This document shows, one piece after another, positions 31,660 through 60,145 of a stretch of DNA of 64,000 nt; the first letter of the stretch is position 1, and each line of letters begins with the position of its first letter. Below the pieces are notes generated by a model. That model had not been told where the DNA came from. It searched no databases and saw only the letters and a program-made list of their open reading frames with translations. Source of the stretch: Staphylococcus phage vB_SsapH-Golestan-100; the sequence record LC647030.1; one strand, given 5' to 3'. The position numbers and the translations under genes are program-made.

Positions 31660-32577
31660 ATGGAAGTAACAAAAAGACTAGCAACAGACACTATAAACAA
31701 ATTTATATATAATACAAATGAATACATCAGTAACAGTTTAGAAGAGCAAGCAGAAAAGGACAAAGAGTTGGATTCACTTGTAATACCTGACTTAATACCC
31801 GCAATATCTGAAGTTAGGCCTTACACTAACATTGTTACAGGAATGCGTATCATAGACTATAACATTAACTATAATAGGCTAGATAATTATAAAGTAGATG
31901 CTGATGTTGAATTAACTTCTAGAAGTGCTTTGACAACAAGTACAACTAGCTCTACCAATGTAATAAAAATAAAATTAGTTTTAGAGCCTATTAATGAGAG
32001 TCTATTAATTACAGAGTATAGTAAAGATGTAGTTAATATCAGTGAGGAAGATACTTATGATGAAGACATGGCAGAGGGTATACCTATGGTTATATCCTTT
32101 ACTAATTCATTACTAGAAGACAAACCTAATTTAACTAATCTATATTATGCTTATAGAGGAAGACCTTCTACAGACCCATTAGACTATATTAACGATAATC
32201 CTGTAGGCGTGGACATGTATACTATAATTTACTGGATGATGAAACACCAAGAAATACCTAATGACTTTAATTATCCTTTGACATCAGAGGACTTTATAAG
32301 TTATGATGGTATATATGAGGTATACTCTAAAGGGCATAAGTATAAGTATTATCTTGATGAGATGGAAAAAGGTGACTTTGTATTCTTTGATGATAATGAC
32401 ACTACAGTAGGTATATACATTGGAGACAACAGATGCATCACCATTACAGGTAAACAGCCATATGACAGAAGTGGAGGTTTAGACTTTATTGTATTAGAGG
32501 ATGAATGGTGGGATAGATTTAATGGTAGGATTATGAGATTTAAAGAGGAGGATGTAGTAAGATGGGAGCTAATGTAG
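31660..32577 (+). CDS. Tail/baseplate protein (305 aa)
   Basis: ORF with RBS tagggggtaa. Called from its position. Confidence 0.45.
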   Translation: MEVTKRLATDTINKFIYNTNEYISNSLEEQAEKDKELDSLVIPDLIPAISEVRPYTNIVTGMRIIDYNINYNRLDNYKVDADVELTSRSALTTSTTSSTNVIKIKLVLEPINESLLITEYSKDVVNISEEDTYDEDMAEGIPMVISFTNSLLEDKPNLTNLYYAYRGRPSTDPLDYINDNPVGVDMYTIIYWMMKHQEIPNDFNYPLTSEDFISYDGIYEVYSKGHKYKYYLDEMEKGDFVFFDDNDTTVGIYIGDNRCITITGKQPYDRSGGLDFIVLEDEWWDRFNGRIMRFKEEDVVRWELM

Positions 32578-35500
32578 TAAGAAGACAATCAGGACTTGGA
32601 ACTACCTTTTCAGAAACAACTTCTGAAGACAATAAAATGAAGAGCTTGATTTTAGCTAGAATCATAAAAGTATACTATAAGTATCAAACTGTTGAATTAG
32701 AGGCACTATCAGGTAAGTTGTCATTAGGTAAAGGTAACAACACAGAAGGTAGATTTTCAGCTCCATATCCTAAGTCTTTCACAGGATTAACTCCTGAGAA
32801 TGAAGTATATGGCTCTATACCTGTTATGTCTCCAGGCATGATAGTACTTGTTGGTTTTATTAATGATAACCCTAGTAACCCTATAATCGTTAATAGTTAT
32901 GGACTAAATGAGCATAATAAGCAATTAGTTAGAACACCATTATTAAGTGGTGACATGAGAGATGGCAAGAACTATAAATTCAACTCAGCATCTTTTACAC
33001 TATCACCTAGTTTAACTTATCAGTTTAAAGATGGTGAAGGCAATGAAGTTAATACATGGAATGGTTATACATTTCAATCTATAACTTCTGATGCTAATAA
33101 TTTACCTGTAGCTACTGACTACATGGATGGTAGTTATTACATGGATTTATATACTAGTAAGTATGGTGACGGTTCTTTAATTGAACCTAGAACTAAGCAA
33201 GCTCCTGCAATATTTTTTAAACACCAAGGAGAATATACATCAGATGGTGAGTTAGATAATCATATATACATGGACTATATAGAGCCTGATGGTACACATA
33301 GAACTACTTCTATGAATAGAGAAGAGCAATGGAGAACATCTGTTGAGCAAGGACATAAAGGTGACTGGAGAGTAAGGTACCAAGCAGATAGCATTATATT
33401 AGACGATGCACTAGACTACATAGAATTTGGTTTAGATAGTGATAACCAAAGATTTTATGTAGAAAACCCAAATCATTCTTTTGAAGTCACAGATGAGGGT
33501 ATTATGGTTGATGGAAAGCCTCTATTAGCTAACATAGATGACAGTATTGAAGAAGCCTTTAAACATCTAGATGAGATAGAAAGTCAAATGGAAGAAGTTC
33601 AGAACATACTTGAAGGCTTAGGTGAGAGAAGTTTAAGAGAACTTATAAACGCTACTAATGAAGCTATAGCTAAAACTGAACAAAATGAAACTAAGATAAG
33701 TGCGCTTAATAAGGCTATAAATGAAAATACTAATAATATTGCAGGTATGATAGAGAAGTACGATAACTTTATGGATACTGTAAGAACCTATATTCAAGAT
33801 AATGATACTAATATTAACAGTATTAGAGACCGATTGAGAGCGGTTGAAAACTCATCTGATTTAGAACCACTCAAAAAAGATTTAGAAAAATATAAATATA
33901 AAACATACAAAGATGTTAGAGTGGAAGCTGATTTACCTAGATACTTTGCTGGTTATGATGCTATACTAACAGGCTCTCAAAATACAAAGTATAACTTGCA
34001 AGCATTTGCCATGGATAGTAAATACTACTTTTTATTATTTAAACCTGAAGGTTCAGGAGACAAAAGAAATATCTTGGTAGTTTATGATAAGTTTTTAAAA
34101 GAAATCAATAAGTATTTCTTTGGCCAAGGAGTAATTCAAACGATAGCTATTGACGTGCCTGCTAATACGACTAATCGTTATCTCTATACTAAGCTCGATG
34201 ACCAAACAATAGTTTCTTATGACTTAACAGCAATAGATAGTAAGGATGTCTTGACATTTAGTGACATTACTAGTAAAGAGCCTAGAGCATCATATTCAGT
34301 ACCTGTTCAGGACACTATACTAAAGGTTAGAGATAACTGGTTAGTTAAGACAGTAATTGACAGCTTTGGTTATGCTACTTACACGCTTTATGATAAGAAT
34401 TTCTCTAACCCATCTAAGTTATACAAATTACGTAATAATAGTAATGTTGTAGGCTCTATGATGGATGGTGGAAACTTAGCCCAAGTAATTCAAACCCAAA
34501 ATACAGCAGGAGTACAAATAGTTAATTCTGACAATAGTATTCAGGATTACACGTACAGTAACACAGAGTTAAACTCCTTTATCCAAAGTAAGATAGGAGT
34601 TTCTACTTCAACAGCTAAACAGGTAGGTGCTTTTAGTAGCTCTGATGTTTACTTATCTACTATAGTTTACAATGAGGATACAAGCTATGGAAAGACTAAG
34701 GGCATTGCGATTATAGAACATAAAGCATCTAATAGGGATTACAAGTTTAGAGAGTTCTCTTTACCTGTAGACCAAAGACTTACAGTGGCCTGTATAGGTA
34801 CAAAGCTATTTAACACAAATACAAACTCTGAGATTAATAGTATAGAGGATTTACTCACTACTATGACAGACTTGAAGATGAGTTCATTCTCACTATATAC
34901 AAGTAATACTAATATAATTGATTTTAATTCATCTACAAAAGTACCTACAGATGTTATTGTAACTATATCCATGTTAACGGATAAAACATTCTATGTTACC
35001 TATACATTTACTAAAAACAACCAAGAGAACAATTACATCATAAAGAACACAAGCTCAGGTTATGCTTACACAAGTATTGATAATGAACCTGTACTTAATA
35101 ACATAGATGTATATACACTTAAAAATGTAGGTAAATCGTACGTAGTAAATGGTACTAACCTACCTGAAGGAAGTACAGAAGGCTTTGTAGAATTCAGACA
35201 AACACCTAATGCAAGTTTGTTAGTATTTATTGATGCTACATCATTAAACCAATACGGTGCTATAAAAAAAGGCACACAATGGGGAGATTGGAAACTATTA
35301 TCAAAGGAGATTTTTAAACCAAAAGGAGGCGGGTCGGATAAGTATAAATCAATGACAGAGTTGATGAGTGTGGTTCCTGCTGGTACACAATGGGAGATAG
35401 TAACTAAAAACCTATATTCAGACACACTGGTATCAGCCATACATGGAGGAGGTATAGAGATAGGTACATCAGAGTTAGCAGAAGAAGTAGCAACAGAATC

Positions 35501-35960
35501 TAACAAGGATTACTTCTCCTTCTTAGGTAAGAAATCATCAAATAACTCTGAATTACATGTTACCTCTACTAATTATGATGAGCCTACATTGTTTACTATG
35601 CTTAGACGTTCTTTATATTCTGTAGCAATACACGGAGCTAGTGGAGATGACAAAGTTATCTATGTAGGAGGAGCAGACGCTACAAACAAGGCTATCATGA
35701 AAGCAGAACTGATTAATGCTGGATTTGACGCTCAAGATGCTCCTGATAACCTAGCGGGTCTAGAGCCAAATAATATATCTAATCAGACCAAAAGAAAAGG
35801 GTGTGTTCAGTTAGAGTTAACTACAGCACTTAGAAAATCATTCTTTTTAAATGATGACTGGTCTAAAGCTAACAGAAGTAATAGGGATAATTGGACACCT
35901 ACTCTATTTAACTTAACAACAGCTATAACAACTGCAATTAGTAAATTTGAAAATGACTAA
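32562..35960 (+). CDS. Large tail fiber/baseplate protein with a C-terminal poly-gamma-glutamate hydrolase (PghP)-like domain
   Basis: 1132 aa. The C-terminal about 200 aa carry AIHGGGIEIGTSELAEE ... LHVTSTNYDEPT ... AIHGASGDD ... YVGGAD, which matches the PghP/Gamma_PGA_hydro family signature as I recall it. Confidence 0.5.
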   Translation: MGANVVRRQSGLGTTFSETTSEDNKMKSLILARIIKVYYKYQTVELEALSGKLSLGKGNNTEGRFSAPYPKSFTGLTPENEVYGSIPVMSPGMIVLVGFINDNPSNPIIVNSYGLNEHNKQLVRTPLLSGDMRDGKNYKFNSASFTLSPSLTYQFKDGEGNEVNTWNGYTFQSITSDANNLPVATDYMDGSYYMDLYTSKYGDGSLIEPRTKQAPAIFFKHQGEYTSDGELDNHIYMDYIEPDGTHRTTSMNREEQWRTSVEQGHKGDWRVRYQADSIILDDALDYIEFGLDSDNQRFYVENPNHSFEVTDEGIMVDGKPLLANIDDSIEEAFKHLDEIESQMEEVQNILEGLGERSLRELINATNEAIAKTEQNETKISALNKAINENTNNIAGMIEKYDNFMDTVRTYIQDNDTNINSIRDRLRAVENSSDLEPLKKDLEKYKYKTYKDVRVEADLPRYFAGYDAILTGSQNTKYNLQAFAMDSKYYFLLFKPEGSGDKRNILVVYDKFLKEINKYFFGQGVIQTIAIDVPANTTNRYLYTKLDDQTIVSYDLTAIDSKDVLTFSDITSKEPRASYSVPVQDTILKVRDNWLVKTVIDSFGYATYTLYDKNFSNPSKLYKLRNNSNVVGSMMDGGNLAQVIQTQNTAGVQIVNSDNSIQDYTYSNTELNSFIQSKIGVSTSTAKQVGAFSSSDVYLSTIVYNEDTSYGKTKGIAIIEHKASNRDYKFREFSLPVDQRLTVACIGTKLFNTNTNSEINSIEDLLTTMTDLKMSSFSLYTSNTNIIDFNSSTKVPTDVIVTISMLTDKTFYVTYTFTKNNQENNYIIKNTSSGYAYTSIDNEPVLNNIDVYTLKNVGKSYVVNGTNLPEGSTEGFVEFRQTPNASLLVFIDATSLNQYGAIKKGTQWGDWKLLSKEIFKPKGGGSDKYKSMTELMSVVPAGTQWEIVTKNLYSDTLVSAIHGGGIEIGTSELAEEVATESNKDYFSFLGKKSSNNSELHVTSTNYDEPTLFTMLRRSLYSVAIHGASGDDKVIYVGGADATNKAIMKAELINAGFDAQDAPDNLAGLEPNNISNQTKRKGCVQLELTTALRKSFFLNDDWSKANRSNRDNWTPTLFNLTTAITTAISKFEND

Positions 35961-49598: not shown

Positions 49599-49922
49599 AT
49601 GGCATGGGTTTACAATAATGTAGAAGCATCAGGTATGTGTTTATTAACAATAGATGAGATAGACCACAAAACGCTAGTTATGGACTTTATGACAGAGGGT
49701 TGGTATGATAACACTGACCCTAACTTAGTTCTTAAACCAAAAAGAATATGCCCTTATGTTTGGTTTGAAGGATTTGAAACTGACTATTGGTTTTTTGCAC
49801 CAATGAGGTTCATGATTTTAAGTGCACGAGAAGAAATAATAGAAGATACAGATTGGAAATACTACTACACAGGTAAAGATTCTATACCAACGCCAGGAAG
49901 AGGTGAGCCATACCCATGGTAA
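49599..49922 (+). CDS. Hypothetical protein (107 aa)
   Basis: ORF with RBS aggagg. Confidence 0.4.
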   Translation: MAWVYNNVEASGMCLLTIDEIDHKTLVMDFMTEGWYDNTDPNLVLKPKRICPYVWFEGFETDYWFFAPMRFMILSAREEIIEDTDWKYYYTGKDSIPTPGRGEPYPW

Positions 49923-51292
49923 TACAATTTTCACCATTAACAAAAGACAATAATGTAAAAGACCTTTCAGAAACAGTTAATAGTATTGGAGCTGAGCTAA
50001 CTAAGAGTAATAACATATTTACTCAAGTTGATTCTATGTCCAAGACTTTGCAAAATGTTCAACAATTTACATTAACTAATAAGGATGGCTATTCTAAAGT
50101 ACCAGGTTCTTTGAAAAGTATCAGAGAATTGAGAGAGGCAGGTTATTACTATATATCTGCTTCTACTCTTGCTACTTTATCAGATGCCCCACCCGTTAAC
50201 TCTGATGTTGTAATTACTGTAATGCCTTCTTCAACAAAAGATTATTGCATACAGTACTTACATACGCTAAGAGCATCTATTAATCCTAGGGCATTGTTTA
50301 GATACGCTACTCCTTCAATGTCTACAGAGTGGTTATCCGTAGTTACAACACCGTTAACTATGAATACTACCATAAGTGATAAAGACTTAAACAAAGACGT
50401 TATAGATGTTGGAACTTATTACTTTTATAACCTTAAAGGCGTCCCAACAGGTATAACACGAGGGTTTTTAGATGTAAGGAAAGGGCAAAATGACTTAACT
50501 ATATATGAGATTACTAATGCTTCTACAGCTTTGAAATATACATCAATATTTTCACCTGACACAGGACTTTCTAGTTGGGTAGAGGAGACTACATTAGATA
50601 ATATAAATGACTATACTTTAGCAGGTAAGGAAGATAACTATACGTACCCTAGATTTGGACTATATATTTATAAATCAGATAACATATCCTTTGGGGATGC
50701 TGTACAGAAGAAGTTAAAAGAAACTAACCAAGGGTCTTTCACTTTCTATTGCCAAGGAGGAGTACCCGATGCTCCTAGCCAGTATTCAACACGAGGGTTA
50801 TTCATTTCTGATACACCTAAAGACTCAGGCTCTGCAACTAATCATGGTGTATACTACGCTATTGAGACTAGTGGTAAGTTGGTAACAGGAGCTTTGGCTA
50901 GTGATAAATGGTCTACGCCAAAGAAAGCTCCCTCTATAGATACCTTATGGACAGGTAATAAGTTATTTACAGATACAAGTAAGACTGAAAAGTTATCAGC
51001 ACCTATTACAGACTATGATTATGTAGAGATTTTTATTAAGCCTAGAGTAACAACTAACTCCTCAGGAGACGTATGGGACGTAGTAAACAATGAAGGTCGT
51101 AGGTTCTATATAGGTAATGATACCTTCTTTATCGTTTCAGGAACGATTGTAGACTCTAAAGCTAAGACTATAGGTGTTGACCATTATAGAGTGGACATCA
51201 GATTCGATGGAGATACTTTTAAAGTAGATGGTTCTGCTACTATAAACAAAAAAGCACATTATGTAACTAGAATCGTTGGTCATAGAGTTTAG
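49916..51292 (+). CDS. Receptor-binding protein (458 aa)
   Basis: Size and position match the 458-aa RBP of Twort-like staphylococcal phages. Confidence 0.45.
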   Translation: MVIQFSPLTKDNNVKDLSETVNSIGAELTKSNNIFTQVDSMSKTLQNVQQFTLTNKDGYSKVPGSLKSIRELREAGYYYISASTLATLSDAPPVNSDVVITVMPSSTKDYCIQYLHTLRASINPRALFRYATPSMSTEWLSVVTTPLTMNTTISDKDLNKDVIDVGTYYFYNLKGVPTGITRGFLDVRKGQNDLTIYEITNASTALKYTSIFSPDTGLSSWVEETTLDNINDYTLAGKEDNYTYPRFGLYIYKSDNISFGDAVQKKLKETNQGSFTFYCQGGVPDAPSQYSTRGLFISDTPKDSGSATNHGVYYAIETSGKLVTGALASDKWSTPKKAPSIDTLWTGNKLFTDTSKTEKLSAPITDYDYVEIFIKPRVTTNSSGDVWDVVNNEGRRFYIGNDTFFIVSGTIVDSKAKTIGVDHYRVDIRFDGDTFKVDGSATINKKAHYVTRIVGHRV

Positions 51293-51295
51293 ACT

Positions 51296-51997
51296 TTAAG
51301 TACAGGATATTTCCTGTGCTTTTTTTTTCTCATACCTTCCAAAGTTGAATAGTCGATTTTCATCATCCTTATCTAATTGTTTTAATCCTGCGTCTAACTT
51401 CTGGTGTGCTTGTGCAATTTCTTTTTGGGATATTTTATTGATGTTGGTAACGCCTAACCAACGCATTGTTTTTTCTAACGTGGCATCTCTACCTTTTTCT
51501 TGAGAGATAGTTACAAATTGATTAATCTTTTCTTCAAGCTCAGTTACGTCATTATCATTGGCACTTGGTAATTCTTCACCGTTATAGATGTACAACCCTA
51601 GTCCATGTAACGCTGCCGCTTTAACGAAGCATCTTTTCTGTGCTTTGTTGATGTCGAATGTAGTTGCGCTACCTTTAGCTAATGATTTATTTCTAAAATC
51701 TAGTACAGGCAACCATTCGGTTTCAGTTTGTCCTTTAACCGTTACTGATACTTGAACAAAATAACCTTCTGGTGCAGCTAAATATGGAACGAAATAATCA
51801 TCTCTTTCAACATCTGGATGTGGAAACTCATGTGTTTTAATAGTGAAATTTGGGTCAATCTTCTTTAATTCTTGGTGTGCATATGACCATGCAAGATAAG
51901 TAAGTCCATTCTTTTTCTCTACATGATCGTTTACATTTTTGGAATTAAGTTGATTAAATAGTGTTTGTTCAGTCATAATCCACCTCTTCATATTCAA
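51296..51997 (-). CDS. Putative Rad52-like single-strand annealing protein (Sak/DUF1071-type)
   Basis: The N-terminal LTYLAWSYAHQELKKIDPNF resembles the Sak-family YLSWA motif. Confidence 0.35.
   Translation of the reverse strand: MNMKRWIMTEQTLFNQLNSKNVNDHVEKKNGLTYLAWSYAHQELKKIDPNFTIKTHEFPHPDVERDDYFVPYLAAPEGYFVQVSVTVKGQTETEWLPVLDFRNKSLAKGSATTFDINKAQKRCFVKAAALHGLGLYIYNGEELPSANDNDVTELEEKINQFVTISQEKGRDATLEKTMRWLGVTNINKISQKEIAQAHQKLDAGLKQLDKDDENRLFNFGRYEKKKAQEISCT
51301..51329 (+). terminator. Rho-independent terminator at a convergent junction
   Basis: tacagga/tcctgtg stem followed by T9. Confidence 0.6.
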
Positions 51998-52256
51998 CTG
52001 TTTCAGTCAGTGTTTTTTTAATTGCTGTGTGCTTTGTCATATCTATACTAGTGTTATCTAGTCCGTTAAAATCTTTTGCATCTCTTTTGTTAGTTGAGTA
52101 TTTAACGTCAGGAAACGATTCTGAAGGTCTGTTCATAATGTAGAGATCATCGTAATCGTCTTTACGTTTAATTAGATACGTGACTGTCTGTTTCATCGCT
52201 AACCAACCTTTCACCAGCCAAAACTTCTTTAATAGCTTCGAATGACTGTTTAGCAT
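51969..52256 (-). CDS. Hypothetical protein (95 aa)
   Basis: ORF. Confidence 0.35.
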   Translation of the reverse strand: MLNSHSKLLKKFWLVKGWLAMKQTVTYLIKRKDDYDDLYIMNRPSESFPDVKYSTNKRDAKDFNGLDNTSIDMTKHTAIKKTLTETVEYEEVDYD

Positions 52257-52518
52257 CTTCTAGTTCATGCCAGTCATATATGTGTATTGAGCCATAGCCT
52301 TTTTCGTAGTAGTCGCTGAAATGTGTAAATGCGATACCTAGTGTTCCTTCATCAAATTGCTTGAATATAACATGTGCTTCTATGTCTGAATAGGCGAGCT
52401 TGATGTTTAAGTCGTAGGACATGTTGAGTAAACGGTGTTTATTCATAAGTTTCCACCTCCTTATATTTCGATTTGTGATGGGTACACATAAAGTGCGTAT
52501 CTCATGTGGTACTATCAA
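52168..52518 (-). CDS. Hypothetical protein (116 aa)
   Basis: ORF. Confidence 0.35.
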   Translation of the reverse strand: MIVPHEIRTLCVPITNRNIRRWKLMNKHRLLNMSYDLNIKLAYSDIEAHVIFKQFDEGTLGIAFTHFSDYYEKGYGSIHIYDWHELEDAKQSFEAIKEVLAGERLVSDETDSHVSN

Positions 52519-52570
52519 AGATAGTAACCTTATATTGTGAGGTGGTAGTTAGCCACCTCGTGTGGTATAA

Positions 52571-53296
52571 TTAAATAAATAACAACATTGTATCTAATTT
52601 GTTTTTGTTATGTTTTCTCTTGTTATAAATCTCTGCCAGTGCTAGTGGTAGGGATTCTTTTTTCGTTTTAAATCCCACTTGTTTTTTAGTTGCTTCTTGG
52701 ATAAAGCCTTCATAACCAATTTCTTTCAAACGATTAATCAAATGTGACACATCTATTTTATTTCCGTAAGTAGCAATGAATTGTGCAAATCCTTTTATTA
52801 TAAACGCTTGGTAAAATCTTCTTTCTAGTCCAAATGATGATTTAATTACTTGTAGAACTATTTCTAAAAATTCTTTACCATATTTTTTATGAACGCTTTG
52901 CAATGAAGCATACGCAGTAATGTAACCTTCTTTTGTTCCCTTTTTATCGTAGTCAATACTTAAACCAACATTCTGAACAGCTTCTTCAATTTCAATTGCG
53001 TTTTGATCTCCAAACTTTAGTGATGATTTACCTTTTGAATTTGGCGATTTAGCAGGTCTGTCGTTAATGCCATAGTACATTTCAGCTTCTTCTTCCACCG
53101 TTAATCCTTCATGAACAGTAGAGTCTATAGTCGGTATACCTAATTCTTTTAGAGCTTCAACTCTATGTTGTCCATCTATTACGAAAAATTGTCCATTTTC
53201 CCTTTTGTTAACTACTATTGTGTGTAACTTTTGTGGGTCGAAGTTTTTAACTATTTTTTTAACTTGCGAATCCTTTACTGGCGACTGATAACTCAT
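52571..53296 (-). CDS. DGQHR-domain (ParB/DndB-like) nuclease-family protein
   Basis: FFVIDGQHRVEAL signature. Confidence 0.55.
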   Translation of the reverse strand: MSYQSPVKDSQVKKIVKNFDPQKLHTIVVNKRENGQFFVIDGQHRVEALKELGIPTIDSTVHEGLTVEEEAEMYYGINDRPAKSPNSKGKSSLKFGDQNAIEIEEAVQNVGLSIDYDKKGTKEGYITAYASLQSVHKKYGKEFLEIVLQVIKSSFGLERRFYQAFIIKGFAQFIATYGNKIDVSHLINRLKEIGYEGFIQEATKKQVGFKTKKESLPLALAEIYNKRKHNKNKLDTMLLFI

Positions 53297-53377: not shown

Positions 53378-53408
53378 AGTAAAAGACCATAGAATAGGAG
53401 GATTTATA

Positions 53409-55967
53409 GTGAAGATTATTGTAGACATTATAGACAGCAAGATAGAGTTTGAACCTGAAGATGAGCATTTAAAACCCGCTATTATCAACAGAGCACATAC
53501 TGATTTAGGTGCTAGAGACCCGAACTTTTTGCATGACAGAAGGTATAAGTTAGGTATATGGGATGGGATGATAGACTTTTACGATGCAAAAAACCATTCA
53601 TTCCCTACAGGCCTTCTAGAAAAAGTTATGATTATGCTAGGGGACATGCAGTCGCAGTATGGATTTACATATTCTGTAGAGGACTTCAGACCTGATACGT
53701 TTTTAGATGTTGATGAGATGGATGAGGAAATAGTTTTAAAGGATGAAGATTTAGGCTCCATAACACTTAGAGACTATCAGCATGATGCAGTAAAAGGTAT
53801 TATAGAACACATGAATGGTATTGTTAACCTAAGTACTAATGCAGGTAAATGTATCAATAAGAATACAAGAATACTTACAGCGCAAGGTTATAAAACACTA
53901 GAGGACATCTTTACAGAGCAAGGTATAAGTTTAGATGGTGATGAGGAAGTTATACCATTACAGTATACGCTCATTAATCGTTATGGAAAGAGAGAACAAA
54001 CAAGTCATTTTACAAAGAATGGTATTAAGCCTACTAAAGTGATAACTACACATAGAGGAACAACATTGAATACAACTTACAACCATCCCTTATTAGTAGA
54101 TAGAGAGGGTACACCTGAGTGGGTTAAAGCAGAGGACTTAAAAGCAGGAGACAAGCTATATGCTAGAGCTGGTGATAACATATTTGGCACAGATAAAACA
54201 GTTAGGTCTGAGAGTGAAGCTTATAGAAGAGGTGCTATACAATCTGCAACAAAACCTCTACCAAAGTATATTCATCAAGCACCAAGAAAGATACAATTAG
54301 CATTTCTTACTGGGTTTTTAAATCTTAGAGAAGGTATTGACTTACTAAAAACATTACATACCTATAATGAACGTATTGTAATAGAAAGTCCATGTAAAGA
54401 GCTATTAGAGGACTTACAGCTAGTTCTATCTAACCTAGGTATTCTATCTTCCCTAAAGGATACAGAAAAATCTTCTTTTACATATTACGGTTTATTGGAT
54501 GTATATGAAGGGCAAGAAGAGTTGAATATAGAAACGCAAACCTATTTACAAGAAGTTGTTTCTATAGAAGAGGGAGAAGAGATTCCTACATTTGATGTTA
54601 GTATGCCTGAGACAAACTCATTCATAGGACAGGGGATTATAAACCATAATACAGAAGTAGCTAGTGGAATCATTCAGCAGTTACTCCCTCAGTTAGAAAG
54701 AGGAGAGCGTATTGCTTTCTTCACTAATAACTCATCTATCTTTTACCAGTCAGCTAAACGTATAGGAGATAGATTAGGTATTAAAGTAGGATTATATGGT
54801 GGAGGTAAAAAAGACATACAACAAGTTACATGCGTAATGTTACCTACGATACATGCTGGGTTGACAGACCCTGAAAAAAATGTTAAACTAACTGAGAAAG
54901 AAAGATTATTTAAACGTATAGCTAAAGAGGTACTACCTCAGTTTGAATCAGGAGTAAACCAACGTTATCTACTGAAGCTATTTATTGACCGTTTTGAACC
55001 TAAGACCAAAGTTGACTTAAAGTTTAAGCATGAGCTTGAAGAGGTCTTACATAGAAGTGGTTCTGATAGTGAAGTATTGATGAACTTAACAAAGTATGCT
55101 AAGCTATATAGAGAAACAATACAGAAGAAAAATAATAAAGTATATAAGAAGAATAAAGAAGTGGTAGACTTCTTAGAGAGTGTTTCTGTTATGATTTGTG
55201 ATGAAGCACACCATACGTCAGCAGATACTTGGTACTACTCACTCAGACGATGCATCAATGCTCAATACAGAGTAGCCCTAACAGGTTCAATAGAAGAGAG
55301 CAATGAACTACTCGTAATGAGGCTGAAATCAGTATTTGGAGAGATAGTAGCTAAAGTAAGAAACAAACAAATGATTGAAAGAGGATTTTCTGCTAAACCT
55401 ATCATAAAAGTTTTTCCTGTAACTCAACCTAAAGACATATCAGGATTAAAAGAGTTCCAAGAAATATACAGGAAAGGTATAGTTGAGAATGAGTATAGAA
55501 ACCTGTTGATGGCTAAACTAACTAAAACATTAAACACACAAGGTAAAACAACACTATTGATAGTAAACCATACAAAACATGGAGAGGCATTAGTAGAGTT
55601 ATTAGAGCAACTAGAGATAGACCATAGATTCATTCATGGTCAATTATCTACAGAGTATAGAGAAGAGTCATTACAATTAGTGAGAGATGGGAAACTAGAT
55701 GTTCTCATAGCCACATCTATTGTAGATGAAGGTGTAGACATCTCAGCTATTGACGCTTTAATACTTTGTGCAGGAGGTAAATCTTTACGACAAACCCTTC
55801 AGCGTATAGGTAGAACATTAAGAAAGAAAAAAGGTGACAATACCTGCCAAGTATTTGATTTCACCGATTACACACATGACATTTTACTTTCACACTCTAA
55901 GAAGAGAAGAAAAATATATGTAGAAGAAGAGTTTGAGATAGTTGACATACAGCCAAAAGCAAAATAA
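53409..55967 (+). CDS. SF2 (DEAH-type) helicase precursor with an intein in the Walker A motif
   Basis: STNAGK|C...HN|TEVASG. DEAHH Walker B. C-terminal helicase motifs TGS, IATSIVDEGVDI and QRIGRTLR. Confidence 0.75.
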   Translation: MKIIVDIIDSKIEFEPEDEHLKPAIINRAHTDLGARDPNFLHDRRYKLGIWDGMIDFYDAKNHSFPTGLLEKVMIMLGDMQSQYGFTYSVEDFRPDTFLDVDEMDEEIVLKDEDLGSITLRDYQHDAVKGIIEHMNGIVNLSTNAGKCINKNTRILTAQGYKTLEDIFTEQGISLDGDEEVIPLQYTLINRYGKREQTSHFTKNGIKPTKVITTHRGTTLNTTYNHPLLVDREGTPEWVKAEDLKAGDKLYARAGDNIFGTDKTVRSESEAYRRGAIQSATKPLPKYIHQAPRKIQLAFLTGFLNLREGIDLLKTLHTYNERIVIESPCKELLEDLQLVLSNLGILSSLKDTEKSSFTYYGLLDVYEGQEELNIETQTYLQEVVSIEEGEEIPTFDVSMPETNSFIGQGIINHNTEVASGIIQQLLPQLERGERIAFFTNNSSIFYQSAKRIGDRLGIKVGLYGGGKKDIQQVTCVMLPTIHAGLTDPEKNVKLTEKERLFKRIAKEVLPQFESGVNQRYLLKLFIDRFEPKTKVDLKFKHELEEVLHRSGSDSEVLMNLTKYAKLYRETIQKKNNKVYKKNKEVVDFLESVSVMICDEAHHTSADTWYYSLRRCINAQYRVALTGSIEESNELLVMRLKSVFGEIVAKVRNKQMIERGFSAKPIIKVFPVTQPKDISGLKEFQEIYRKGIVENEYRNLLMAKLTKTLNTQGKTTLLIVNHTKHGEALVELLEQLEIDHRFIHGQLSTEYREESLQLVRDGKLDVLIATSIVDEGVDISAIDALILCAGGKSLRQTLQRIGRTLRKKKGDNTCQVFDFTDYTHDILLSHSKKRRKIYVEEEFEIVDIQPKAK
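53850..54650 (+). mobile_element. Intein (267 aa) inserted in the helicase P-loop
   Basis: Block A CINKNTRILTAQGY begins immediately after GK. Block B GTPEWVKAEDLKAGDKL. Blocks F/G TFDVSMPETNSFIGQGIINHN|T. Removal restores TNAGKT. Confidence 0.7.
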
Positions 55968-59119: not shown

Positions 59120-60145
59120 ATGAAATTTATATTTTTTACAGACAGTCATTTTCACTTATTCACAGACTTTAGTAAACCTGACGAGTTTTATCGCAACGAC
59201 AGGTTTAAAGAACAAATGGAAGCCTTAAACTCTGTCTTTGAGATAGCAAGGGAAAAGGAAGCTACAATTATCTTTGGAGGAGACTTATTCCATAAACGTA
59301 ACGCTGTAGACACAGTAGTCTACAATGAAGTATTTAAAGTATTTGCTAGAAATAAAGATGTAGCTGTCTTATTACTCAGAGGTAATCATGATGCTACTAC
59401 CAATTCAGTATATACTGATTCAAGTATAGATACGTTTGAATACTTACCTAATGTAAGTGTATTTCAATCTTTTGGAACTATAGAGAAGGATAATGTAAAT
59501 ATAGTCTTTACAGCTTATGGTGATGAGACTGAAGAGATTAAAGAATACATCAAGGAGAATAATAAACTAGGTAAAGTAAACATTCTTGTAGGCCACTTAG
59601 GTGTAGAAGGGTCTTTAACAGGCAAGGGTTCTCATAGATTAGAAGGGGCGTTTGGGTACCAAGACCTATTACCTGATAAGTATGATTTTATTCTTTTAGG
59701 GCATTATCATAGAAGACAGTATTTCCAAAACCCAAATCACTTTTATGGTGGCTCTTTAATGCAACAATCATTCTCAGATGAGCAAGAAGCTAATGGTGTT
59801 CACTTAATAGATACTGATACTATTACAACAGAATTTATACCTCTAGATACACGTAGGTTTATTACAGTAAGAGGGGATGATGTCCCTGAAGACCTAGACC
59901 AACTTATAGAGTATGGTCACTTCATTAGATTTGTAGGTAGTACTAACCAAGCTAAAGCGATAGAGTTAGCATCTACAGATGAGACTAATAACATACGAGT
60001 AGAGTTACAGAAAGATTATACAGTAGAAAAACGTATAGATAGTGAAGTCACTGATTCACCGTTATCTATAGCATCAAGCTACTCAGATAAGTACTATCCT
60101 GAAGCTAAGAAAGAAATATTAGAATGTCTACAGGAGGTTTTATAG
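59120..60145 (+). CDS. sbcD: SbcD/Mre11-like nuclease
   Basis: Calcineurin-like phosphoesterase motifs DSHFH, GGDLFH, GNHD and GHYH. Confidence 0.7.
   Translation: MKFIFFTDSHFHLFTDFSKPDEFYRNDRFKEQMEALNSVFEIAREKEATIIFGGDLFHKRNAVDTVVYNEVFKVFARNKDVAVLLLRGNHDATTNSVYTDSSIDTFEYLPNVSVFQSFGTIEKDNVNIVFTAYGDETEEIKEYIKENNKLGKVNILVGHLGVEGSLTGKGSHRLEGAFGYQDLLPDKYDFILLGHYHRRQYFQNPNHFYGGSLMQQSFSDEQEANGVHLIDTDTITTEFIPLDTRRFITVRGDDVPEDLDQLIEYGHFIRFVGSTNQAKAIELASTDETNNIRVELQKDYTVEKRIDSEVTDSPLSIASSYSDKYYPEAKKEILECLQEVL

Follow-up and report, generated by a model that had tools for sequence, protein, structure and literature searches.

A probable class 1 intein with an eroded LAGLIDADG endonuclease in the Walker A motif of a UvsW-like helicase of Staphylococcus phage vB_SsapH-Golestan-100

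In Staphylococcus phage vB_SsapH-Golestan-100 (record LC647030.1), the Walker A motif (P-loop) of a superfamily 2 (SF2) helicase gene is interrupted by 267 additional amino acids (aa), between its lysine and its threonine. Such a locus raises three questions, namely what the inserted segment is, how a helicase could work with its P-loop split, and whether the insert can still move. We addressed them within a stretch of 64,000 nucleotides (nt) of this record, hereafter referred to as the window. The segment at 53850..54650 is very probably a class 1 intein in which a degenerate LAGLIDADG remnant persists, as argued below from its splicing residues, its alleles, its predicted fold and its pattern of substitutions.

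The host gene shows all features of an SF2 helicase: a GK(T/S) Walker A on conceptual excision of the insert, a DEAH Walker B reading MICDEAHH, and a C-terminal RecA-like Helicase_C domain. Pfam detects ResIII (35.8 bits), Helicase_C (68.6 bits) and, weakly, UvsW_N in the exteins, PHROGs gives a match to phrog_16, DNA helicase (4e-116), and identity to annotated phage helicases reaches 51-58%. Across the two junctions the precursor (97 kDa) reads GIVNLSTNAGK/CINKNTRILTAQG...SFIGQGIINHN/TEVASGIIQQ, where slashes mark the limits of the insert, so that the +1 residue following Asn267 is Thr415 of the precursor, that is, the Walker A Thr itself. When the insert (30.2 kDa) is excised in silico, the remaining 585 aa (67.2 kDa) contain an unbroken Walker A, NAGKT. 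The initial annotation of this DNA had proposed exactly such an arrangement (an insert in the Walker A of an SF2 helicase, TNAGK/C...HN/T, with intein blocks A, B, F and G and a terminal HN followed by Thr, the excision of which restores GKT). Translation confirmed its coordinates and length to the residue, the helicase domains and the four blocks were all located, and every splicing residue was present.

A Pfam search, also suggested in the initial annotation, supports this identification: the Intein_splicing model (PF14890) matches residues 156-414 with 49.8 bits, against a cut-off of 35.8 (E-value 4.4e-13). Two NCBIfam models, intein_Nterm (TIGR01445) and intein_Cterm (TIGR01443), score 29.5 and 16.3 bits, with cut-offs of 24.5 and 15.6, respectively. 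As these scores exceed curated cut-offs, the resemblance to inteins is not a matter of chance. Furthermore, an alignment of 41 alleles contains 22 invariant intein columns, and the window allele agrees with the consensus at all 22 of them, including Cys1, Thr76, His79, Asp249, His266 and Asn267. Given these intact catalytic residues and the strong purifying selection on the split helicase described below, it is highly probable that the helicase intein splices efficiently.

Class 1 inteins are known to excise themselves through an N-S acyl shift, a trans-esterification, an asparagine cyclisation and an O-N shift. At this locus, the gene would be translated as the 97-kDa precursor, from which the Hint domain would then remove itself. 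Cys1 would carry out the N-S shift, and the resulting thioester would be attacked by the hydroxyl of the +1 Thr. Cyclisation of Asn267, helped by His266, would free the 30-kDa intein, and the final O-N shift would establish a normal peptide bond, re-creating GKT in an active helicase of 585 aa.

Other phages provide us with many alleles of the same site. Used as a tblastn query, the spliced helicase of 585 aa retrieved 789 phage records, and a search with the intein alone retrieved 121. Inteins of 418-432 aa occupy the same position in Twort (ORF006), Sepunavirus, S25-3/S25-4, Listeria Pecentumvirus, and Enterococcus and Bacillus phages. In Twillingate, the coordinates of a mat_peptide annotated as 'intein' coincide with the matched region; the gene of S25-3/S25-4 is labelled 'putative helicase with intein', and some of the Listeria, Enterococcus and Bacillus records read 'intein containing DNA helicase'. 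In an alignment of eight sequences, the junction GK/C...HN/T is identical in every intein-bearing allele. Intein-less alleles in related phages, a comparison that had been proposed from the outset, are contiguous at this point: the helicase of Alsa_1 (57% identical) reads TNGGK/TEIASGII, and TNGGK/TEIASG is found without insert in Alsa_1, A511, phage 110 and others.

The size of the insert was then surveyed in 120 cluster representatives of the helicase, obtained by searching a wide protein database with the whole precursor (a search of a large protein database with the intein alone returned three truncated fragments only and was unusable for this census). No insert is present in 28 of the 120 representatives, which, like phages Alsa_1 and A511, read TNGGK/TE(I/V)ASG. 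Inserts of 386-438 aa are found in 80 representatives, of 250-316 aa in eight, and of 155-180 aa in four, and every insert at the GK/T bond is bounded by C...HN/T. The segment is therefore not present in the homologues as a conserved insertion devoid of splicing, which the initial annotation had named as contrary to its proposal; the homologues show presence or absence and a series of sizes (0, 155-180, 250-316 and 386-438 aa). As judged from these sequences, presence/absence polymorphism combined with size decay marks the segment as an intein and not as a structural insertion that has been conserved. In the other alleles of intermediate size (250, 271, 293, 305 and 316 aa), the limits of the deletions differ, indicating that erosion arose independently several times at the GK/T site.

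The same family shows insertions at other points as well. In one group of homologues (P0043, 1004 aa, 81 member sequences; also the fragment P0003), an intein site lies in the same P-loop three residues upstream, ATN/C...HN/SGKT, with Ser as the +1 residue; one Walker A motif thus offers two distinct insertion points within this helicase family. Five further homologues (P0088, 1391 aa; P0092, 1342 aa; P0091, 1272 aa; P0108, 1141 aa; P0098, 1120 aa) exceed by 100-400 aa the length expected with one GK/T intein, which probably reflects a second intein, or an insertion of another kind, at a different place in the gene.

The predicted structure agrees with the sequence motifs. An AlphaFold2 model of the intein, built on the 41-allele alignment, has a mean predicted local distance difference test score (pLDDT) of 92.7 and a predicted template modelling score (pTM) of 0.89, and in this model the intein adopts the Hint fold. 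A Foldseek search of the PDB with the model returned inteins only, and dozens of solved structures matched it with a probability of 1.00. Endonuclease-associated inteins rank first, led by TliVMA/PhoVMA (7qsu, 7qst; E-value about 1e-13, TM-score normalised to the query, TMq, 0.70-0.73), and the next ones are PI-TkoII, PI-PfuI and PI-SceI, while mini-inteins align to the Hint half only (TMq 0.4-0.5). A sequence search of the PDB gave weak matches to mini-inteins only (E-values of at least 0.0025), so that a fold search was needed to reveal the likeness to endonuclease-bearing inteins. The part of the model outside the Hint domain corresponds to about one LAGLIDADG half-domain: a helix (intein residues 146-161), a strand (176-180), a second helix (183-195) and two strands (200-208 and 211-218) forming a hairpin (200-218). 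Confidence is lowest (67-77) at the expected first beta-hairpin of the half-domain.

What is left of the endonuclease can be read by alignment to full-size relatives. Relative to the Twillingate intein, the deletion map is 418 - 70 + 6 - 2 - 39 - 46 = 267 aa, a net loss of about 151 aa. The 70-aa deletion opens inside motif 1, and the 87 aa (2 + 39 + 46) lost after the second half-domain represent the C-terminal part of the endonuclease. Motif 1 has changed from ALGCMIADS in the relatives to RRGAIQSAT, with D replaced by A, and motif 2 from LSGYLECES to LTGFLNLRE, with E-x-E replaced by N-x-R; the acidic positions at the ends of LAGLIDADG motifs are presumed to be catalytic, in line with what is established for I-CreI and PI-SceI. 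The degenerate LAGLIDADG core that the initial annotation had proposed is thus borne out by both the deletions and the lost acids. Its choice of LAFLTGFLN (intein residues 150-158) as the LAGLIDADG segment holds in so far as this segment aligns with the second motif of full-size relatives; it is not the sole motif, since the stump AYRRGAIQSAT of motif 1 survives. Pfam LAGLIDADG_3 (PF14528) matches aa 321-360 of the protein with 24.0 bits (cut-off 22.5), over positions 22-64 of the 82 of the profile only, which shows ancestry and not an intact domain. Both features of double-motif LAGLIDADG enzymes, two half-domains and an acidic residue at each motif end, are absent, and we infer from the alignment that the endonuclease is inactive.

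The intein very probably descends from the LAGLIDADG inteins of 418-432 aa that occupy this position in myophages of the Twort, Sepunavirus, Listeria, Enterococcus and Bacillus groups. In the lineage leading to the window allele, a half-domain and the C-terminal portion of the endonuclease were deleted and the acids at both motif ends replaced. With its endonuclease inactivated, the element would no longer home by itself and would be inherited vertically.

Close relatives allow this history to be followed further. The helicase gene is 95.8-95.9% identical at the DNA level to 'DNA helicase' genes of the Staphylococcus capitis phages S2G3 (PV037055) and Fi4S2 (PV037056), two myophages of about 153 kb, and a 20-kb stretch around the helicase is 95.4% identical to S2G3/Fi4S2 over 90% of its length. 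Both phages, for which we found no describing paper, carry the same 801-nt insert (97.4% aa identity) in a gene labelled only 'DNA helicase'. Gene order is Twort-like (Herelleviridae), with tail fibre, helicase, helix-turn-helix protein, DnaB-like helicase and SbcD/SbcC. A Logan metagenome contig (P0005 / L008) has the same 267-aa architecture, its intein being 80% and its exteins about 92-95% identical at the aa level, which implies that the deletions are older than the divergence of the clade and that inheritance has been vertical since. The 267-aa form was found in one narrow phage clade only, where its divergence tracks that of the exteins. A recent foreign acquisition of the intein was considered and rejected, as its guanine-plus-cytosine content (34.5%) is close to that of the exteins (35.2%) and of the window (34.3%), and as the architecture is common to a relative with an 80% identical intein.

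We estimated omega for each segment by the pairwise Nei-Gojobori method (NG86), comparing the window with Fi4S2 and with L008, for which values are approximate. Omega is 0.012-0.021 (Fi4S2) and 0.024-0.038 (L008) in the exteins, 0.048 and 0.062 in the whole intein, and 0.083 and 0.113 in the endonuclease remnant. In the core of the remnant (intein residues 141-196), omega is 0 relative to Fi4S2 (no non-synonymous and six synonymous substitutions) and 0.032 relative to L008. Neutrality is rejected in every segment by binomial tests. As far as substitutions can tell, the whole intein, including the remnant core, is therefore under purifying selection. Mutations harming the folding or splicing of the intein would be selected against because the helicase would be crippled, and the half-domain has most probably been kept because the intein must still fold and splice efficiently for an essential helicase of replication or recombination to be produced. 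The simplest reading is that the intein is now fixed and its endonuclease dead, a stage of the homing cycle at which it does not spread and can be lost only by precise deletion.

Several points weigh against an efficiently spliced intein with a dead endonuclease. No paper was found that demonstrates splicing of any allele of this helicase intein, support coming from annotation and bioinformatics. The synonymous divergence (dS) relative to L008 is saturated (>1), making omega rough, which is why binomial tests and per-segment aa identity were used alongside, and the comparison with Fi4S2 involves few substitutions (4-5 non-synonymous ones in the remnant). With respect to the endonuclease, a Glu is located one position past the substituted site of motif 2 (LNLRE), and single-motif LAGLIDADG enzymes can act as homodimers. 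Together, the downstream Glu and a possible homodimerisation leave a small door open to residual endonuclease activity. The remaining half-domain could then be a single-motif homing endonuclease, for example a dimer, and the intein could still home into intein-less alleles during co-infection. The PF14528 score just over its cut-off, the strong conservation of the remnant core (omega 0-0.03) and the neighbouring Glu all point that way. Against this stand the loss of the first half-domain from the middle of motif 1 and of the 87 aa following the second, the replacement of the aligned acids in both motifs and the low confidence of the model at the expected first beta-hairpin. The restriction of the 267-aa form to a narrow clade, with divergence tracking the exteins, moreover fits vertical inheritance better than recent spread, and we regard a still mobile intein as very improbable. 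Even less credit can be given to the idea that the insert is a Hint-type domain unable to splice (a dead intein or a bacterial-intein-like domain), with a helicase either permanently interrupted and non-functional or tolerant of the insertion. The clear decay of the endonuclease part makes a decay of splicing conceivable; however, none of the splicing residues has been lost, and they agree with the 22 columns that do not vary among the 41 alleles. Omega is about 0.05 in the intein, and orthologues either have or cleanly lack an insert at precisely the GK/T peptide bond. In addition, the exteins, including both halves of the P-loop, evolve at an omega of 0.01-0.04, which would be senseless if Walker A were permanently split by 267 residues.

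A further possibility is that the intein splices and has been domesticated, being retained because its splicing is conditional (on redox state, metals or temperature, for example) and gates the helicase during infection, with a contribution from the remnant. An immobile intein does persist throughout the clade, where purifying selection acts on it and on its remnant core, and there is a second Cys at intein residue 182. Selective retention has been proposed for P-loop inteins (PMC4760082), and two reports document conditional splicing of the mycobacterial DnaB P-loop intein (PMC4760082; PMC6195587). However, purifying selection is expected in an essential gene without any regulation, as slower splicing is deleterious and precise deletion rare. 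Many relatives also thrive without an intein, or with a mini-intein of 155-180 aa at the same site, so that a special function is not required. We consider domestication unlikely, and a shade more doubtful still its specific form in which the conserved half-domain remnant and the second Cys of a co-opted, endonuclease-dead intein make splicing conditional and gate helicase maturation post-translationally. If true, conditional splicing here would exemplify, in a phage, the 'intein as sensor' concept that has been put forward for P-loop inteins. The preferred reading remains that of a splicing intein that is no longer mobile. The corresponding features are listed in Table 1.

Table 1. Positions of the helicase gene, the intein and the endonuclease remnant in the window
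Feature	Position	Strand	Details and evidence
Helicase precursor open reading frame (ORF)	53409..55967	+	852 aa + stop; GTG start; UvsW-like SF2 'DNA helicase A' of Twort-like phages
Shine-Dalgarno box AGGAGG	53396..53401	+	Read from sequence; 7 nt 5' of GTG start
N-extein, aa 1-147	53409..53849	+	Ends with first half of Walker A, STNAGK; NG86 omega 0.01-0.04
Class 1 intein (very probable), 267 aa (30.2 kDa), Cys1 to Asn267	53850..54650	+	Precursor aa 148-414; PF14890, TIGR01445, TIGR01443, alignment to annotated same-site inteins, AlphaFold2, Foldseek
Intein block A (CINKNTRILTAQG), intein residues 1-13	53850..53888	+	Cys1 nucleophile; C1 and G13 invariant in 41 alleles
Intein block B (GTTLNTTYNHPLLV), intein residues 70-83	54057..54098	+	T76-Y-N-H79 = TxxH motif; T76, N78, H79 and P80 invariant in 41 alleles
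LAGLIDADG motif 1 stump AYRRGAIQSAT	54219..54251	+	Aligns to AYVLGCMIADS of full-size inteins; Asp replaced by Ala; 70-aa deletion directly after
Homing-endonuclease remnant, intein residues 128-222, about one LAGLIDADG half-domain	54231..54515	+	PF14528 match, AlphaFold2, omega
LAGLIDADG motif 2, degenerate, LAFLTGFLNLREG	54297..54335	+	LSFLSGYLECESS in Twillingate; acidic positions replaced by Asn and Arg
Intein block F (IPTFDVSMPETNSFIGQ), intein residues 245-261	54582..54632	+	Asp249; T247, D249, P253, T255, S257 and F258 invariant in 41 alleles
Intein block G (GIINHN), intein residues 262-267	54633..54650	+	His266-Asn267 terminus; N265, H266 and N267 invariant in 41 alleles
C-extein, aa 415-852	54651..55964	+	First residue = +1 Thr completing Walker A (GK/T); carries DEAH (Walker B) and Helicase_C; NG86 omega 0.02

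Apart from the helicase gene, the ten largest ORFs of the window yielded no further intein or Hint domain. Twort-like phages are published as rich in group I introns (PMC6597688), and a group I intron or other RNA element was also considered as the nature of the helicase insert; it was rejected, as Rfam at gathering thresholds gave no match in the whole window, group I intron and tRNA families included, and as the ORF is continuous in frame.

Other parts of the window deserve mention. Between the tail-fibre gene (49916..51292) and the helicase lies a module of four ORFs (51296..53296, minus strand), encoding a Sak-like single-stranded DNA-annealing protein (phrog_659, 4e-82), two proteins of unknown function (phrog_946 and phrog_3119) and a ParB-like protein (phrog_1033, 7e-35). 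This module is absent from S2G3, Fi4S2 and L008, in which the tail-fibre and helicase genes are about 80-100 nt apart. Its sole DNA matches are partial (76-82%) and concern the staphylococcal phages vB_SarS_BM31 and IME1354_01, each with a genome of about 42 kb, and the module has the appearance of a mosaic element acquired by a lytic myophage. In the tail/baseplate region, an ORF of 1132 aa (32562..35960, plus strand) has a C-terminal poly-gamma-glutamate hydrolase domain (PF05908, 2.8e-54, residues 928-1110), and its product is possibly a virion-borne depolymerase. Finally, a single intact Metallophos (SbcD-like) ORF of 341 aa is present at 59120..60145 (plus strand) in the window, and likewise in L008. 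The Fi4S2 counterpart (L001, 11712..14556) consists of a 585-nt 'recombination exonuclease', a 1275-nt 'transposase' coding sequence and then a 'nuclease SbcCD D subunit', which indicates a mobile-element insertion in Fi4S2, not in the window.

The Twort ORF6 intein is presumably listed in the InBase registry. A Hint domain has been reported for the Twort helicase (PMC5526547), and the helicase intein is on record in Twillingate, Quidividi and Terranova (PMC6597688). An intein at this helicase site is therefore already annotated or published in related phages, and the finding is less novel than the initial annotation implied. The new elements are modest, namely a shortened allele, so far unannotated, in an S. 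capitis phage clade, and the size series at the GK/T site. This series represents, in one gene, a natural homing cycle with empty, full-size (386-438 aa), partly eroded (250-316 aa) and mini (155-180 aa) stages, in which the window allele is an intermediate with a remnant still under purifying selection. No current view of inteins or of these phages is altered. In terms of annotation, the gene in this phage, S2G3 and Fi4S2 should become 'intein-containing DNA helicase precursor', with mature products of 585 aa and 267 aa. The allele may also be of use to engineers seeking naturally minimised inteins with Thr at +1, and to studies of the persistence of endonuclease remnants.

Among known systems, the closest are the inteins of Twort ORF006, Twillingate gp122 ('intein-containing DNA helicase precursor') and S25-3/S25-4, which share the gene, the GK/T bond and the C1...HN/T termini, with about 49% aa identity over shared parts and colinear Hint blocks. 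They differ from the window intein in their length (418-420 aa, instead of 267) and in having two acidic-ended LAGLIDADG motifs, both acids of which are replaced here. At the other end of the series, the metagenomic mini-inteins P0103 (155 aa), P0064 (175 aa) and P0119/P0121 (180 aa) occupy the same GK/T site with the same Hint blocks (38-44% Hint identity), but lack any endonuclease domain, whereas the window intein, which is intermediate, keeps about 95 residues of it.

More distant likenesses concern the site and the fold. Inteins are over-represented in the P-loops of replication ATPases (PMC4760082), and the position between the invariant Lys and the nucleophilic Thr of Walker A is known as the 'classic' one for a P-loop intein (PMC5050341). 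The window intein resembles mycobacteriophage TerL1-a, DnaB site b, MCM site a and RFC-S site a inteins in lying between the Walker A Lys and a hydroxyl residue that serves as the +1 nucleophile (PMC5050341, PMC4760082), and in having a replication or recombination ATPase as host. Their hosts are SF4, SF6 and AAA+ ATPases and terminases, however, instead of an SF2 UvsW-like helicase, and no close sequence relationship exists with other P-loop inteins, as NCBIfam intein-containing models match partially and far below threshold. In its predicted fold, a Hint domain with an inserted LAGLIDADG-type domain, the window intein resembles TliVMA/PhoVMA (7qsu/7qss/7qst), PI-TkoII (2cw7), PI-PfuI (1dq3) and PI-SceI (1vde, 1lws), with E-values of 1e-13 to 1e-6 and TMq of 0.58-0.73. 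Sequence identity to these archaeal and yeast inteins is only 9-17%, and their hosts are an archaeal or yeast V-ATPase, polymerase or ribonucleotide reductase. They are also larger (360-540 aa) and contain a complete endonuclease, and the lower TM-scores normalised to the target (TMt 0.37-0.55) reflect the parts that are missing from the window intein.

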